Below, in pieces: positions 12,680 to 16,458 of a stretch of 21,607 nt of DNA. The DNA is from a virus. The stretch covers positions 1 to 21,607 of the IMG/VR virus record IMGVR_UViG_3300029622_000040. One strand, given 5' to 3'. Position numbers and translations under genes: made by a program. Below the pieces are notes generated by a model, which saw nothing but the letters and a program-made list of their open reading frames with translations, did no database searches and had not been told where the DNA came from. Positions within the stretch are counted from its first letter, which is position 1. Every line of letters starts with the position of its first letter.

Positions 12680-13204
12680 ATGGCAATAGACCAGATAAAA
12701 ACAATCAATGAATTGGAACGTCTTCCGCAGGTAGAGGACAGCAACGCTTTTGCGGCGTCCACTGGCGGCGCGACCGGCAGCGTAACTGCCAATCAAATAA
12801 TGGAATATATGAAACAATACCTTGAGAGTTTGAGTAATAAGTCAACCACACTCACGGAAAGCGACAGCCAATATCCGACGTGTAACGCGGTGTCAAAGGA
12901 AACAACTCGCATAATAAATATTATGCAGGACAAAGCTTCGGGCTATCCAAATTGGGCGGGTATTTCAAAGCCGGTAAACGCGGTTTTTACTGTAGACGCG
13001 CCGGGGTTGCTTTTCATAGAAAGCACGAATAATAACGCAACTGGTTATGTGACAATTAATGGCTTTCAGATGATTTATGGGTCAGGCAACGGTTACGCTA
13101 GAGACTATTATTGTGTGACTTATTTAGTTGACAGCGGCGATGTCGTGCAAACCACAGACGCCACCGGCAGAGTAATTTTATTTGTGTTTAAGACAAAGGT
13201 GTAA
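12680..13204 (+). CDS. Tail fibre / receptor-binding protein (short, 174 aa)
   Basis: ATG with GGAGAG ribosome binding site. The sequence is rich in S/T/G/N. It is the last structural gene before the assembly protein. Confidence 0.35.
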   Translation: MAIDQIKTINELERLPQVEDSNAFAASTGGATGSVTANQIMEYMKQYLESLSNKSTTLTESDSQYPTCNAVSKETTRIINIMQDKASGYPNWAGISKPVNAVFTVDAPGLLFIESTNNNATGYVTINGFQMIYGSGNGYARDYYCVTYLVDSGDVVQTTDATGRVILFVFKTKV

Positions 13205-13207
13205 AAA

Positions 13208-13552
13208 ATGTTGAGAATAGCTAAAATCGAAGACGAAAACTATAGGCTTTCTGTGGTTGAGACCGAAACGGAATTAACGCCGATGTGGGAAAACCTCGGG
13301 TACTCGCTGATGAAATGTGAAAAAGCTTGGGATGGGAACTATTACCCGATTGGCCGCGCGCCGGTTGAGCCGGCCGCGCACAAAGCGCAACAGCGAATTA
13401 TTGAGCTTAAAACTTATTTGTCGCAGACAGATTATATTTGCATGAAGTTAGCGGAGGGAGCCGCCTCGCCCGAAGAATACGCGGACGTAATCAAGCAACG
13501 CGAGGCCGCCCGGGAAGAAATCAGAGAATTAGAGCCGCTTGTTGGCAATTAA
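13208..13552 (+). CDS. Tail fibre assembly / chaperone-like protein (hypothetical)
   Basis: Position after the fibre gene. Ribosome binding site AAGGTG. Confidence 0.25.
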   Translation: MLRIAKIEDENYRLSVVETETELTPMWENLGYSLMKCEKAWDGNYYPIGRAPVEPAAHKAQQRIIELKTYLSQTDYICMKLAEGAASPEEYADVIKQREAAREEIRELEPLVGN

Positions 13553-13902
13553 GTGGCTCTAAATTTTAAGCCGTAAATGCCATAAATTGCCGTATTTTCT
13601 TTTGATTTTTTTAAGAATGTTGTCGTTGTGCCCTTTGCGTATGGTTCGATGTACCAGTATTTGTAGGTGTCGGCTATACCAATTGGAACGGCGGAAGCTC
13701 TCAACAAATAATCAAGATTTTTTGTTGAAAAAAACCTCGGTATAAGTACACTACCTGAATCAGGTGCGTAGGTTATAATTATAAAAGGAAAATTTGTAAA
13801 TGGTTGATTAAGCGTTATATCCCCACCGGGGTAGAAACCCTCAAATAAAACTTCCTGCTGATAGCTATTATAATTATTTAAATCGCTGATAAAACTATTC
13901 AT
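13549..13902 (-). CDS. Hypothetical protein; a convergent minus-strand gene that looks like a moron
   Basis: ATG at 13902 (MNSFISDL...). Its 3' end overlaps the fibre-assembly gene by 4 nt. It is the only minus-strand gene in the structural half. Confidence 0.35.
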   Translation of the reverse strand: MNSFISDLNNYNSYQQEVLFEGFYPGGDITLNQPFTNFPFIIITYAPDSGSVLIPRFFSTKNLDYLLRASAVPIGIADTYKYWYIEPYAKGTTTTFLKKSKENTAIYGIYGLKFRAT

Positions 13903-13933
13903 AATATTTATTATGAGATAAAAAAATAAGCGG

Positions 13934-14000: not shown

Positions 14001-14390
14001 ATGAGTTTGGAAGATGTAAAAAATGCCAAAAAATCGGAAGTAACTTCACAATTGGTTAGGATGATTGGCGGCGGCTTTCCCATCGACGACACCCACCGCG
14101 TGTTATCAGCGGTAGACCCCGTTTATACTTACATTCTTAACTACTGGCTGACGGCCAGTGTAGACAGCTACGACGTCCCCGTCTACGACAATTTTGGAGA
14201 TGTCACATCTCTGGAGTTTCCCGACAAGATGTCTGCCGAAATGTTCGTGAACAAAATCCATGACTATATTTGTTACTCTGCTATTCGTTCGGCCAGCCTG
14301 AACAAACTAATCGACGCCGCCGAGACCGAAGAAGAAGTCGAAGCGATGAATATTTCACTGGTAAGTTTTGCTGATTTTGTAAATGACTAA
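14001..14390 (+). CDS. Acidic hypothetical protein
   Basis: Ribosome binding site AAAGGAAG. It is the first gene of the post-fibre operon. Confidence 0.4.
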   Translation: MSLEDVKNAKKSEVTSQLVRMIGGGFPIDDTHRVLSAVDPVYTYILNYWLTASVDSYDVPVYDNFGDVTSLEFPDKMSAEMFVNKIHDYICYSAIRSASLNKLIDAAETEEEVEAMNISLVSFADFVND

Positions 14391-14685
14391 AGAAATCGAA
14401 CAGCTCGCGAGAAAAGTGTCGCATAATTACCGCTTGATAATAATTGGCGGCGCTTTTCTTTACAGCTGTTTTCTTTTTTATAACCAGCAGCTCGTAAACA
14501 CTTCGGACATTCACGACCTGAAAAGTAGAATTGATAAATGTGAGCTTAACCAAGCTCGCATTGAAAGCGAAACCGCGCAAACTCTTGCGGACATTAATCG
14601 GCAGCTGATTGGAATTTCAACCGATTTGCAGTTGATAAAAACCAACCTCATTTCCGAGGGTTTAAAGCATGGAGCCAAGAATTGA
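14383..14685 (+). CDS. Single-pass membrane protein with a C-terminal coiled coil (holin or spanin-like candidate)
   Basis: Transmembrane segment LIIIGGAFLYSCFLFY followed by a heptad-like helix. Confidence 0.35.
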   Translation: MTKEIEQLARKVSHNYRLIIIGGAFLYSCFLFYNQQLVNTSDIHDLKSRIDKCELNQARIESETAQTLADINRQLIGISTDLQLIKTNLISEGLKHGAKN

Positions 14686-14876
14686 ACATTTTCATTTACC
14701 GTCCAGACAAAGCCCCAAACCCAAATGTTACGCCTGCCTTGTGCTATACGCCGAGCGGGCAAAATTTTATCGACTGGCAGCGCGAGCAGCAGGAAGTGTT
14801 GACCTATAAAATTGAGCTTGCGAAATCGAAGCAAAACGCCATTCCTGAACACAAAATTTTTGATTATTGGAGGTAA
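14682..14876 (+). CDS. Small hypothetical protein (TTG start)
   Basis: GGAG 7 nt upstream of TTG 14682. Confidence 0.25.
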   Translation: MNIFIYRPDKAPNPNVTPALCYTPSGQNFIDWQREQQEVLTYKIELAKSKQNAIPEHKIFDYWR

Positions 14877-14879
14877 ACA

Positions 14880-15431
14880 ATGTTATCGGCTTTTTTATGG
14901 CGGGTGCGCGGTGGCCTTTTGAAAAAATACATACCAGCAAACAAAATTTGGTATGCGCTGTTTTTCGGTGTTTGTGGTTATTTCCATTTTGGAAACAGCC
15001 TTGAAAAAGCTGTCGTTGGGTTTATTTGCTGCTATGCAAGTTATCAGCTGTATGGCTGGGGATTGTATATCGGCCGGCTGCTGGATGGTGGCAAGCTTAA
15101 CCCTAACCTTGTCCAGTATCGTGAATGTGAATTGATTGATGACTTACTTTATCCGCTGCACGTTACGATAAAAGGGAAAAAAATCTATTTGTACAATTAC
15201 CCGAAATGGTTCGGATTTTGCGGGGTAACGCTGACCGGCCTGATTATTACTTTTTTATGGGGGTTATATTTTGGCAGCTTGTCAATGATGATTGCAGGGC
15301 TTGCTATGGGCGTTTGTTATTGGATTGGGGGCTTGCTTGAAAAACTCTATCCCTTGGGAAAAGCCGGCTGGAATTGGGGCGAGTGGATTTTTGGAGAATA
15401 TTTAGGGGTTTGGCTGGCGTGCATAGTTTAA
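14880..15431 (+). CDS. Polytopic membrane protein (about 4 transmembrane segments). Candidate holin, superinfection exclusion protein or envelope-modifying protein
   Basis: GGAGGT ribosome binding site 5 nt upstream. Four hydrophobic segments rich in W/Y/G. It sits immediately upstream of the lysis promoter. Confidence 0.4.
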   Translation: MLSAFLWRVRGGLLKKYIPANKIWYALFFGVCGYFHFGNSLEKAVVGFICCYASYQLYGWGLYIGRLLDGGKLNPNLVQYRECELIDDLLYPLHVTIKGKKIYLYNYPKWFGFCGVTLTGLIITFLWGLYFGSLSMMIAGLAMGVCYWIGGLLEKLYPLGKAGWNWGEWIFGEYLGVWLACIV

Positions 15432-15451
15432 AAATCGCAATCATCTTTTTA

Positions 15452-15480
15452 TTGATTTTCATTTTGGAAATTTTTATAAT
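15452..15480 (+). promoter_or_regulatory. Promoter TTGATT-17-TATAAT upstream of the endolysin
   Basis: Perfect -10 TATAAT at 15475-15480 with a 17-bp spacer from TTGATT at 15452-15457. Confidence 0.45.
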
Positions 15481-15509
15481 ATTTGTAGAAATTTCAGAAA
15501 GGGTATGAC

Positions 15510-15935
15510 ATGTATCGGTCAAAAGATGTTGATATTCTTGCACGGACGATTTACGGCGAGGCGCGAGGCGAAGCGGAAATCGGCAAGCGAGCAGTGGCGT
15601 CCGTAATTCTAAATCGTTACAAGTCAGGAAAATGGTTCGCAGGCAACACCATCGCCGAAACCTGCCAGTTTTGTGTGAAAGGTTCGAAATACCACCAATT
15701 TTCATGCTGGAACGAAGACGACCCCAATTTTGACTTAATTAACAGAATTTCAGAAAGTGACAAAGTTTTTTGCGAATGTATAGACGTCGCGGAAAAGTAT
15801 GTCGCTGGTGTTTACAAAGATATTGTCTGCGGCGCCTGTCATTATTGTGTCGACGGCACTCATCCGGCTTGGGCAAAAGGGCGAAATCCTGATTTGCAAA
15901 TCGGCCGGCACCTTTTCTATTGCGGTGTAGAATGA
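15510..15935 (+). CDS. Endolysin, SleB/CwlJ-type cell wall hydrolase (Hydrolase_2 family)
   Basis: Family signature motifs ARTIYGEARGE and AVASVILNR. No signal peptide or signal-arrest-release (SAR) domain, so export would be holin-dependent. Confidence 0.8.
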   Translation: MYRSKDVDILARTIYGEARGEAEIGKRAVASVILNRYKSGKWFAGNTIAETCQFCVKGSKYHQFSCWNEDDPNFDLINRISESDKVFCECIDVAEKYVAGVYKDIVCGACHYCVDGTHPAWAKGRNPDLQIGRHLFYCGVE

Positions 15936-16060
15936 AAATCAGTAAAAAAAGAGCGTGGCAAATTGTACTGTTTATTTTGGCTGTGGCTGGAATTTTAGTC
16001 GCAAATGGACAATATGACGCTGCTGTTAAATTGTTTATCGGAGTTCTGGGATGGCTTTAA
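15932..16060 (+). CDS. 42-aa membrane protein (MKISKKRAWQIVLFILAVAGILVANGQYDAAVKLFIGVLGWL). Possible holin/antiholin-like or lysis accessory protein
   Basis: Not in the ORF track because it is under 60 aa. Its ATG overlaps the endolysin stop (ATGA at 15932-15935). It has one clear transmembrane segment and ends inside the i-spanin start. Confidence 0.35.
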   Translation: MKISKKRAWQIVLFILAVAGILVANGQYDAAVKLFIGVLGWL

Positions 16061-16317
16061 AATGGGCGTTAGGCATACTTGCCGCCGGCAATATCGTTTT
16101 TTTTAATCTGTGGATGAATGAAAAAGAAAAAAGAATTGCACAGGAGGTACATTTTTCGACCGTAGAAAGCGAAAGGAAGATAAAGGATGATAAATCTGTT
16201 ATTACTCAAAAAAAAATCGCTGTGCGCCGGGAAAAATGCGCAGAGCCGCAGCCGCAAGATTGCGATTGTCTTAATTATGCTATTTCTGCTGATGTGGTTG
16301 AATGGCTGCGCAGCTAA
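16051..16317 (+). CDS. i-spanin candidate (N-terminal transmembrane segment, periplasmic helix)
   Basis: Transmembrane segment ALKWALGILAAGNIVFFNLW followed by a charged helical domain with C-terminal cysteines. Location immediately after the endolysin. Confidence 0.5.
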   Translation: MALKWALGILAAGNIVFFNLWMNEKEKRIAQEVHFSTVESERKIKDDKSVITQKKIAVRREKCAEPQPQDCDCLNYAISADVVEWLRS

Positions 16318-16408
16318 ACAGGTAAAAACAAAAAACAACTGTATTTATTCGGTTGTGACTTACGGTCAAGCGCTGGACTGCTTAAAAGAACTTCATGAAG
16401 CTCAATAA
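16187..16408 (+). CDS. o-spanin candidate (lipoprotein) in the +1 frame, overlapping the i-spanin
   Basis: Hydrophobic core IAIVLIMLFLLMWL then lipobox-like LNGC. It starts inside the i-spanin gene and extends past it (overlapped spanin architecture). AAGGAAG ribosome binding site. Caveats: the mature part is short and proline-poor, and the N-terminal region is long. Confidence 0.4.
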   Translation: MINLLLLKKKSLCAGKNAQSRSRKIAIVLIMLFLLMWLNGCAAKQVKTKNNCIYSVVTYGQALDCLKELHEAQ

Positions 16409-16436
16409 ACAAAACCCCCACCTTAAAAAAAGTGGG
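16402..16436. terminator. Bidirectional rho-independent terminator
   Basis: An 11-bp stem (AAAACCCCCAC/GTGGGGGTTTT) around a 9-nt loop, with T-runs on both strands. It lies between the convergent lysis operon and the minus-strand RHH gene. Confidence 0.75.
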
Positions 16437-16458
16437 GGTTTTGCCTGGTTAACATACT

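Follow-up and report, generated by a model that had tools for sequence, protein, structure and literature searches.

We analysed a stretch of viral DNA of 21,607 nucleotides (nt), positions 1 to 21,607 of the IMG/VR virus record IMGVR_UViG_3300029622_000040, with a focus on the genes for host lysis; this whole stretch is hereafter the window. Positions 14383-16443 of the window are a single lysis module of a roughly 22-kb tailed phage that infects an uncultured alphaproteobacterium of the human gut. The module is of a known kind, with an endolysin and spanins that add new members to established classes. The holin side consists of three unannotated membrane proteins: a 100-amino acid (aa) protein with one transmembrane (TM) segment, a 42-aa single-pass peptide, and a 183-aa multi-pass protein. 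Comparison of related loci supports a predicted, testable pairing of the first two. The module comprises the following features, given with the evidence for each.

14383-14685, plus strand: 100-aa single-pass membrane protein ("TM-CC"; list of open reading frames (ORFs) and sequence)
14682-14876, plus strand: 64-aa soluble ORF with a TTG start (ORF list and sequence)
14880-15431, plus strand: 183-aa multi-pass membrane protein of an orphan family (ORF list and sequence)
15432-15509: 78-nt gap before the endolysin gene
15419-15508, plus strand: open 29-codon hydrophobic frame, overlapping the promoter-like site
15452-15480, plus strand: promoter-like TTGATT-17 nt-TATAAT (consensus scan)
15510-15935, plus strand: 141-aa soluble SleB/CwlJ-type (Hydrolase_2) endolysin (Pfam, PHROG, hydropathy, SleB structures)
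15932-16060, plus strand: 42-aa single-pass membrane peptide (ORF list, hydropathy, alleles)
16051-16317, plus strand: 88-aa inner-membrane spanin (i-spanin; N-terminal TM segment, homologues)
16187-16408, plus strand: 73-aa precursor of the outer-membrane spanin (o-spanin), in the +1 frame (lipobox, homologues)
16410-16443, no strand assigned: 12-bp G+C-rich hairpin, likely a terminator (folding)

An earlier note on this DNA, made from the letters alone, had listed most of these ORFs, and all of its coordinates and overlaps agree with the ORF list and the sequence. It had set the genes before the endolysin apart as an upstream operon; these genes, from 14383 onward, belong to the same module. 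At the other end, the hairpin (arms AAAACCCCCAC...GTGGGGGTTTT) has a folding energy of -20.2 kcal/mol (z -3.2 against shuffles) and likely is the terminator that closes the module. It was missed by the consensus scan because its loop exceeds 8 nt. Genes beyond 16443 lie on the opposite strand.

A small membrane ORF accompanies one type of first gene

For comparison, we fetched about 180 related human-gut loci, designated by L-numbers (L001 and so on). These share a recurring layout that consists of a variable first membrane gene, one of six groups of endolysins, a conserved multi-pass protein homologous to that in the window, and spanins. The first slot is filled by a protein with three TM segments (PHROG 6384 "holin", E-value 4.6e-5), a Phage_holin_4_1 protein (5.9e-11), a coiled-coil protein with a C-terminal TM segment, or a TM-CC protein, that is, a single-pass protein in which an N-terminal TM segment is followed by a long helix. 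Pfam scans of the relatives' TM-CC and C-terminal-TM proteins returned generic coiled-coil noise only. Small TM ORFs were sought in the gaps between assigned genes, in an automated search over the loci with enough flanking sequence (about 130 of the approximately 180). The numbers of loci with such an ORF, by type of first gene, are as follows.

TM-CC first gene (seven clusters at 40% identity or more): 66/66
Multi-TM holin first gene: 0/24
C-terminal-TM first gene: 0/21
Unclassified first gene: 1/19

Among the loci with an assigned type of first gene, the small membrane ORF is confined to those of the TM-CC type, the other holin types together giving 0/45. The unclassified loci that have an endolysin carry a canonical or C-terminal-TM holin elsewhere in the locus. 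The small ORFs themselves are of several types with unrelated sequences, including the 42-aa ORF of the window, a "KPEY" family, an "APE.LP" type, and others. In 18 loci, the TM-CC family of the window is paired with the 42-aa ORF, and in eight further loci it is paired with the unrelated KPEY peptide, which occupies the same slot.

The position of the small ORF bears on a different reading, namely, that the 42-aa peptide serves the spanins, by restraining the i-spanin or aiding its insertion into the membrane, and has no part in the holin. In the window, as well as in L022, L049, and L080, the small ORF lies just upstream of the i-spanin gene; the stop of the 42-aa ORF overlaps the i-spanin start, and the unrelated KPEY peptide is coupled to the i-spanin in the same way in the other three loci. 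Furthermore, in the recombinant locus L040, the C-terminal allele of the 42-aa peptide travels with the allele of the i-spanin TM segment, a linkage that is due to the physical adjacency of the two. However, nearly every cassette has spanins, whether or not it also has a small ORF; the small ORF is therefore tied to the TM-CC gene and not to the spanins. The peptide gene of L082-L086, L016, and L021 adjoins the TM-CC gene, at a distance from the spanins, and in L046 and L047, a peptide is present and no spanin is found nearby. We therefore regard a spanin-related role as improbable.

The 42-aa ORF is a lineage-specific gene

The endolysin stop and the start of the 42-aa ORF overlap in an ATGA, and at its other end the ORF overlaps the i-spanin gene by 10 nt, a placement suited to translational coupling with both neighbours. 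The encoded peptide begins with MKISKKR, has a single, fully apolar TM segment at residues 9-25 (hydrophobic stretch at residues 10-24, with a 15-residue Kyte-Doolittle mean of 2.79), and continues in a 17-aa hydrophobic or amphipathic tail. The C-terminus (...VKLFIGVLGWL) has one charge in the last 13 residues and thus differs from a charged tail of the holin type.

To gauge selection, nine versions of the module were aligned, and the window was compared with the alleles in these versions by counts of differences per codon position and by the ratio of nonsynonymous to synonymous differences (pN/pS). Four alleles of the 42-aa ORF were found on 11 related contigs, with no stop codon or indel at up to 24% nucleotide divergence. 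The 28 nt differences from the most divergent allele, that of L001, are distributed 10/1/17 over the three codon positions (chi-square test against an even spread, p ~0.001), and the pN/pS of 0.18 in this comparison is close to the values for the endolysin (0.13) and the multi-pass gene (0.19). A product of identical length has been predicted by the gene callers of other assemblies on at least 25 public contigs, and a word-indexed search of 5.8 billion proteins yielded two clusters of exactly 42 aa that are 95-98% identical. The earlier note had pointed to this unlisted TM ORF overlapping the endolysin stop and the i-spanin start. The alleles and the pN/pS establish it as a real gene under purifying selection, and it is a lineage-specific orphan. 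A phmmer search of 1.84 billion representative proteins found only its own cluster and spurious matches in large repetitive proteins, and the comparison with Pfam, PHROG, and NCBIfam gave no match below an E-value of 0.05 and no holin family. In Smith-Waterman comparisons with the small peptides of other cassettes, p values against 2000 shuffles were 0.016-0.48, and a hidden Markov model (HMM) of the KPEY family does not find the 42-aa ORF even at an E-value of 50. Because both these comparisons were negative, we treat the 42-aa ORF and the peptides of other cassettes as analogues only.

An incidental open frame, or a mere spacer for translational coupling, could share some of these features, given that the ORF is short, has no homologues outside its lineage, and resides in A+T-rich DNA, where hydrophobic ORFs arise easily. 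The 10/1/17 distribution, the neighbour-like pN/pS, and the four intact alleles make such a non-functional ORF extremely improbable. A frameshift fusion of the 42-aa ORF with the i-spanin was also considered and rejected: the one run that looks slippery, T TTA AAA at 16056-16062, belongs to the frame of the i-spanin, and a -1 slip from it leads to the third frame.

The earlier note favoured the 42-aa ORF as the holin of the cassette. The peptide is indeed a real, small membrane protein encoded beside the endolysin, in a coupling position, within the endolysin-spanin unit that follows the promoter-like site; if it acted alone, it would be the smallest known holin. However, it lacks the charged C-terminal tail, has a single, fully apolar TM segment, belongs to no known family, and is dispensable among relatives. 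It is missing from L002-L005, whose endolysin is the same (83-84% identity), from all cassettes in which the first gene is of the multi-TM or C-terminal-TM type, and from many cassettes with the same plan; moreover, a TM-CC partner is present wherever an ORF of this kind occurs. A sole-holin role is accordingly hard to credit, and we rate it as improbable as the spanin-related one. The remark in the same note that no canonical holin is evident was borne out, in that no membrane ORF of the module matches a holin family in Pfam, PHROGs, or NCBIfam, and its fallback, which placed the holin function upstream, is the reading favoured by the comparative data.

The 100-aa TM-CC protein is the best holin candidate

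The first gene of the module encodes the 100-aa protein; two genes lie between it and the endolysin gene. The 100-aa protein has an N-terminal basic segment, a TM segment at approximately residues 18-33 (15-residue Kyte-Doolittle mean of 2.31 at 18-32), and then a 57-residue helix; in the AlphaFold2 (AF2) model, helices span residues 2-37 and 42-98, with a predicted local distance difference test score (pLDDT) of 86-91 in the long helix. With a pN/pS of 0.04-0.05, it is under the strongest constraint in the module. A homologue in L080 (phmmer E-value 8.7e-18) is encoded directly upstream of the endolysin, overlapping the endolysin start, which is the classic holin slot, and weaker homologues are present in L083/L084 and L082. 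The indexed search of 5.8 billion proteins detected a single cluster at 90% identity, and no match was found in Pfam, PHROG, or NCBIfam. Positive-inside counts in four members of the TM-CC family suggest an N-in/C-out topology. Class III holins are described as having one TM segment and a periplasmic domain (PMC9636201). Of the proteins encoded in the module, the 100-aa protein is the strongest candidate for the holin, with hole formation as its predicted function.

A role of this protein as a second i-spanin was rejected: there is no partner lipoprotein, and the relatives carry a separate spanin pair. A side observation concerns the second family of TM-CC proteins (L007/L008 and L022/L076), whose genes, located upstream of the endolysin, have two in-frame starts, the earlier of which would add a strongly basic extension of 22-25 residues before the TM segment; such dual starts recall the dual-start motifs of holin/antiholin genes.

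The adjacent 64-aa ORF has a TTG start preceded by GGAG, no hydrophobic segment, and no match in Pfam, PHROG, or NCBIfam. It is conserved, in the form of two divergent alleles with 55% aa identity (pN/pS 0.39; codon-position differences 16/17/35).

The multi-pass protein is a conserved orphan

The 183-aa multi-pass protein has 226 homologues, none of which carries a Pfam domain or an informative name, and itself has no match in Pfam, PHROG, or NCBIfam. Its invariant residues include R8, R10, G11-G12, G59-W60-G61, E82, D87, K161, and E168, within the conserved motifs WR.RGG, GWG.Y.G, EC.LIDD, and K.GW..GE. The confident AF2 model (pLDDT 79.8, predicted template modelling score (pTM) 0.75) has about five long hydrophobic helices, rather than the four TM segments that had been counted previously, and a conserved loop with a beta-hairpin; there was no fold match in BFVD or the PDB. 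Across the approximately 180 loci, the gene is almost always located within a lysis cassette, before or after the endolysin. The endolysins beside it form six groups in four families, comprising two Hydrolase_2 subtypes, two GH24-like groups, a PHROG 873 type, and Peptidase_M15_3.

This distribution is compatible with a scenario in which the multi-pass protein is the actual holin of the whole phage group, and the first-slot proteins and small peptides are regulators or antiholins. It is the sole membrane protein common to nearly all cassettes and is encoded at most two genes from the endolysin for all six endolysin groups; in the cassettes with a C-terminal-TM first gene, it is the only other membrane protein, an arrangement that recalls XhlA and the holin XhlB of PBSX (weak match to PHROG 937 "hemolysin"). 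However, the multi-pass protein is never the sole non-spanin membrane protein of a cassette, another holin-like gene always being alongside, and in several cassettes, this companion is a bona fide holin, either Phage_holin_4_1 or PHROG 6384 (at the E-values given above). The protein is 55-88% identical across phages in which the holin-slot genes, endolysins, and spanins have been swapped, and has many invariant charged and glycine residues, whereas holins usually are far more variable. Copies are also found in a baseplate module (L028/L029) and as a solitary chromosomal gene in four alphaproteobacterial metagenome-assembled genomes (MAGs; L051, L053-L055, 3977-4555), where it separates FtsB/DivIC, Peptidase_M23, and bactofilin genes from a gene for an MscS-type channel. 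A lethal holin fits poorly with solitary copies in host chromosomes next to such genes, and we find it unlikely that the multi-pass protein is the holin of these phages. It is probably an accessory lysis component, short of proof, that holds the position of LysA in phage P2, and not the main holin; no sequence or fold homology to P2 LysA or to any annotated lysis family was found.

The endolysin and the gap that precedes it

The endolysin matches the Pfam family Hydrolase_2 (PF07486; 56.7 bits against a cut-off of 27, E-value 3.9e-15, profile positions 1-100) as well as PHROG 938 (8.2e-15) and PHROG 15649, both annotated as "endolysin". Its residues 2-42 align to the SleB catalytic-domain structures 4F55 and 4FET in YGE(A/S)RGE and AVA.VILNR, the YGEARGE...VILNR motif. 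The N-terminus, MYRSKDVD, and a highest 19-residue Kyte-Doolittle mean of 0.76 point, by the hydropathy scan only, to the absence of a signal peptide or a signal-anchor-release (SAR) helix. The family, PHROG, and structure matches together with the hydropathy value thus uphold the original call of a SleB/CwlJ-type endolysin without an export signal. Such an enzyme should, therefore, need a hole-forming holin. Judging from its sequence, the endolysin is a soluble, holin-dependent SleB-type enzyme, with catalysis predicted.

The SleB/CwlJ spore-cortex lytic enzymes have in common with the window endolysin the catalytic-domain family and the N-terminal motif. In contrast to these enzymes, the window protein is a single 141-aa domain without a peptidoglycan-binding domain or signal peptide, and serves as an endolysin in a phage (PHROG 938). 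Nine of its 141 residues are cysteines, with CxxC, CxC, and CxxCxxC spacings, which is unusual for a cytoplasmic enzyme; these may indicate metal binding or redox control.

In the gap upstream of the endolysin gene, the promoter-like hexamers at 15452-15480 match 10 of the 12 consensus positions; 15452, the start coordinate in the earlier note, is the first base of this match. Two alleles of the gap exist, which differ in the spacer and the upstream part and retain both hexamers, the distance between them, and the 21 nt that follow. Identity to L001 is 98.7% in the gap, compared to 80-86% in the flanking genes. The 29-codon hydrophobic frame (15419-15508; VHSLKIAIIFLLIFILEIFIIFVEISERV) opens with GTG; in the divergent allele, the corresponding frame has an ATG of its own (MRWAVFFLLIFLLEIFIIFVEISERLQNV, deposited as DAI21710.1), and the seven differences in the shared part are distributed 2/0/5 over the codon positions. 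Because this frame coincides with the promoter-like hexamers, the cause of the conservation is ambiguous, and 15419-15508 may be a promoter, a tiny gene, or both.

The spanins are small but normal

The i-spanin has a TM segment at approximately residues 5-21 (15-residue Kyte-Doolittle mean of 1.85 at 6-20), followed by a charged remainder, predicted to be periplasmic, with a C-terminal C-D-C motif. Its homologues in L001, L039, and L082 were detected with phmmer (E-values down to 2.5e-8), and the C-termini align with a conserved C-[DN]-C...[PS]-A-[DR] pattern. The o-spanin gene lies in the +1 frame, overlapping the i-spanin gene by 131 nt and starting at 0.51 of its length, and both frames remain open at 30% nucleotide divergence. 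By the hydropathy scan, the o-spanin precursor consists of a basic n-region, an h-region with a 19-residue Kyte-Doolittle mean of 2.44, and a lipobox, L-N-G-C, with the cysteine at residue 41. The mature lipoprotein would be 33 aa long, with two further cysteines and with Ala, not Asp, at position +2. In a set of 7,514 ORFs, o-spanin homologues were found in L082, L093, L094, L089, and L097 (E-values of 1e-5 to 1e-9, the L082 i-spanin included). In an alignment of seven sequences, Cys41, C52, G60, C65, and L at -3 are invariant, and position -1 is G, S, or A. The lipoboxes of these seven are LNGC, LSGC, LSSC, LGSC, LTSC, LTAC, and LLSC, and the mature lengths are 33-34 aa. The 3' part of the o-spanin gene outside the overlap has a pN/pS of 0.16. 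The sole database match of the pair is a weak one, of the o-spanin to PHROG 456 "Rz-like spanin" (7.7e-4), confined to the signal region. Pattern scans of IMG/VR gave no matches for the i-spanin and only the L001 contig for the o-spanin.

The +1 frame, the 131-nt overlap, and the lipobox and TM hallmarks are those of an overlapped, out-of-frame spanin pair, as had been proposed. The description of the o-spanin as atypical, short, cysteine-rich, and devoid of proline, does not hold up against a published survey of spanins (PMC6139136). LNGC is named there among the observed o-spanin lipoboxes; two periplasmic cysteines are the commonest state of o-spanins in SpaninDB (240/526), and at least one is present in 507/528 pairs; T4-type o-spanins also have no proline-rich region; and the Brucella phages Bk and F1 carry overlapped +1-frame spanins encoded by genes of 210 nt and 222 nt (69 aa and 73 aa) with an 83-nt overlap (PMC6139136, Table S4). 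Given that the survey records the same lipobox, cysteine state, proline-poor type, and sizes, and that the cysteines are invariant, the pair is, by sequence comparison, an overlapped spanin of the normal kind, though small, and its family has yet to be catalogued, with disruption of the outer membrane as its predicted function.

The overlapped pairs of SpaninDB, in particular the small ones of the Brucella phages, likewise combine a type II i-spanin with a lipoprotein o-spanin in the +1 frame, with periplasmic cysteines, and the Brucella phages likewise have alphaproteobacterial hosts. The genes in the window measure 267 nt and 222 nt, with the longer overlap. Unlike the pairs in SpaninDB, the window pair is outside the described families and has an unusually long, 24-aa n-region in the o-spanin. 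It has five periplasmic cysteines, three in the C-terminal third of the i-spanin and two, both invariant, in the mature o-spanin; a total of five is rare (8/526 pairs in SpaninDB; PMC6139136).

A possible two-part holin

Taken together, these observations suggest a scheme for the lysis process, for which we estimate the chances as about even: the 100-aa protein and the 42-aa peptide would form the holin system and the multi-pass protein would be accessory, with the 42-aa peptide probably not the hole-former on its own. The soluble SleB-type endolysin would build up in the cytoplasm until the holin system opened the inner membrane, with the 42-aa peptide acting as a co-holin or as an antiholin or timer. 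The multi-pass protein would be a third, accessory membrane component that modulates the process. Once the wall was cut, the overlapped i-/o-spanin pair would disrupt the outer membrane. Both single-pass proteins are predicted to be N-in; therefore, the 17-residue tail of the peptide and the long helix of the 100-aa protein would meet on the periplasmic side. The identity of the hole-forming protein, the interaction of the two single-pass proteins, and the topologies are all deduced from sequence, the last by positive-inside counting only.

Several points weigh against this scheme. The three membrane proteins are all without a match to known holin or antiholin families. No homology between the 42-aa ORF and the peptides of other cassettes was detectable with the HMM, Smith-Waterman, or 1.84-billion-protein phmmer comparisons, so that its link to the TM-CC gene is one of analogy: in size and architecture, and in position and context. 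The loci counted for co-occurrence lack phylogenetic independence, the comparison being between seven TM-CC clusters and about four clusters of other holins. Two genes and the promoter-like gap lie between the TM-CC gene of the window and its endolysin gene. Finally, because the multi-pass protein is the only other membrane protein in the C-terminal-TM cassettes, it could be a holin component.

A broader proposal, which we put forward tentatively and consider possible rather than probable, is that phages of human-gut Alphaproteobacteria employ a previously undescribed two-part holin, in which a TM-CC protein is joined by an obligatory single-pass peptide of 40-50 residues, beside the conserved multi-pass protein. 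Under this proposal, the 42-aa ORF may be one of several unrelated versions of the obligatory peptide, and the multi-pass family, with its host-chromosomal members, may represent a new step of envelope disruption.

Relationship to known lysis systems

The closest parallel in layout is phage P2. Its gene order, Y-K-lysA-lysB-lysC, resembles that of the window in that the holin gene, in the window a candidate, comes first and is followed by a soluble endolysin, an extra multi-pass protein, and overlapped +1-frame spanins. LysA is reportedly a timing factor of roughly 140 aa with four TM segments (work said to be that of Ziermann in 1994 and To in 2013). The window differs from P2 in that its membrane proteins have no PHROG or Pfam match to a lysis family, the multi-pass gene precedes the endolysin gene, the endolysin family is different, and two extra small genes (64 aa and 42 aa) are present. 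P2 is an example of the "overlapped" spanin arrangement (PMC6139136) and keeps the holin and the antiholin as separate genes (PMC6116005).

In phage T4, the antiholin RI binds the periplasmic domain of the holin T (PMC6116005). Like T, the holin candidate of the window has one TM segment, and its predicted N-in/C-out topology would give it a sizeable periplasmic domain, as in class III holins (PMC9636201); there is likewise a second small protein with an N-terminal TM segment, whose C-terminus would face the same compartment. In contrast, T is 218 aa long with a globular domain, whereas the window protein has 100 aa and a single long helix, and the peptide extends only 17 residues past its TM segment. 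No homology was found between the two systems, and the window genes are clustered with the endolysin gene, unlike those of T4.

Pairs of holin-like proteins have been suggested to form a functional holin unit (PMC6116005). In mycobacteriophages of the F1 cluster, two holin-like proteins, LysF1a and LysF1b, are needed for efficient lysis, one of them with a single N-terminal TM segment and a long tail (PMC13056207). The lysis cassettes encoding LysF1a/LysF1b and XhlA/XhlB of PBSX contain two small membrane proteins, as does that of the window, but their hosts are Gram-positive or have a mycolate envelope, and there is no sequence similarity. Furthermore, LysF1b is predicted to be N-out/C-in, and its partner has two TM segments and 88 aa, compared to one TM segment and 42 aa in the window peptide.

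Source and mosaic structure of the phage genome

The contigs with the same module come from human-gut metagenomes, and homologues of the multi-pass gene are found in prophages within MAGs of uncultured gut Alphaproteobacteria, some labelled "Azospirillum sp.". The window encodes a large terminase subunit and recombination genes; most of the structural proteins are unrecognisable. A nucleotide search of GenBank revealed no close phage, the only match being one of 133 bp to a "cell wall hydrolase" gene of Dulem virus 29. The contigs of L001, L031-L036, and L104-L106 are all 20-22.8 kb long, near the 21.6 kb of the window. The complete genome may therefore measure no more than about 22 kb, a small size for a tailed phage that encodes a terminase, tail fibres, and a lysis module of seven genes.

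Across the nine aligned contigs, the multi-pass gene, gap, endolysin, and spanins differ in their nearest relative, that is, the module is a recombination mosaic; in L040, the i-spanin combines the TM segment of one allele with the periplasmic domain of another. Outside the module, the tail-fibre region contains an invertible segment (12907-13918), with inverted repeats of 19 nt at its ends (12907-12925 and 13900-13918; complementarity 95%). The inner stretch is reversed in L031, L035, and L037, with breakpoints exactly at the repeats, and the segment resembles the Mu G and P1 C host-range switches.

Implications

Holins and their regulators set the timing of lysis, and homology fails to recognise them in most uncultured phages. 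The comparison of related cassettes adds to this picture a directly testable pairing rule, according to which, in this phage group, a TM-CC protein is always accompanied by a tiny membrane peptide. It also brings to light an orphan multi-pass family of more than 226 members that resides in lysis cassettes whatever the endolysin type, together with a well-supported spanin family of gut Alphaproteobacteria whose members are very small. The 42-aa ORF illustrates that a reading frame too short for the usual 60-aa cut-off can belong to a lysis module and be under constraint. If the TM-CC protein and the peptide do form a two-part holin, the theme of two holin-like proteins would extend from the phages of Gram-positive bacteria and mycobacteria to a Gram-negative system.

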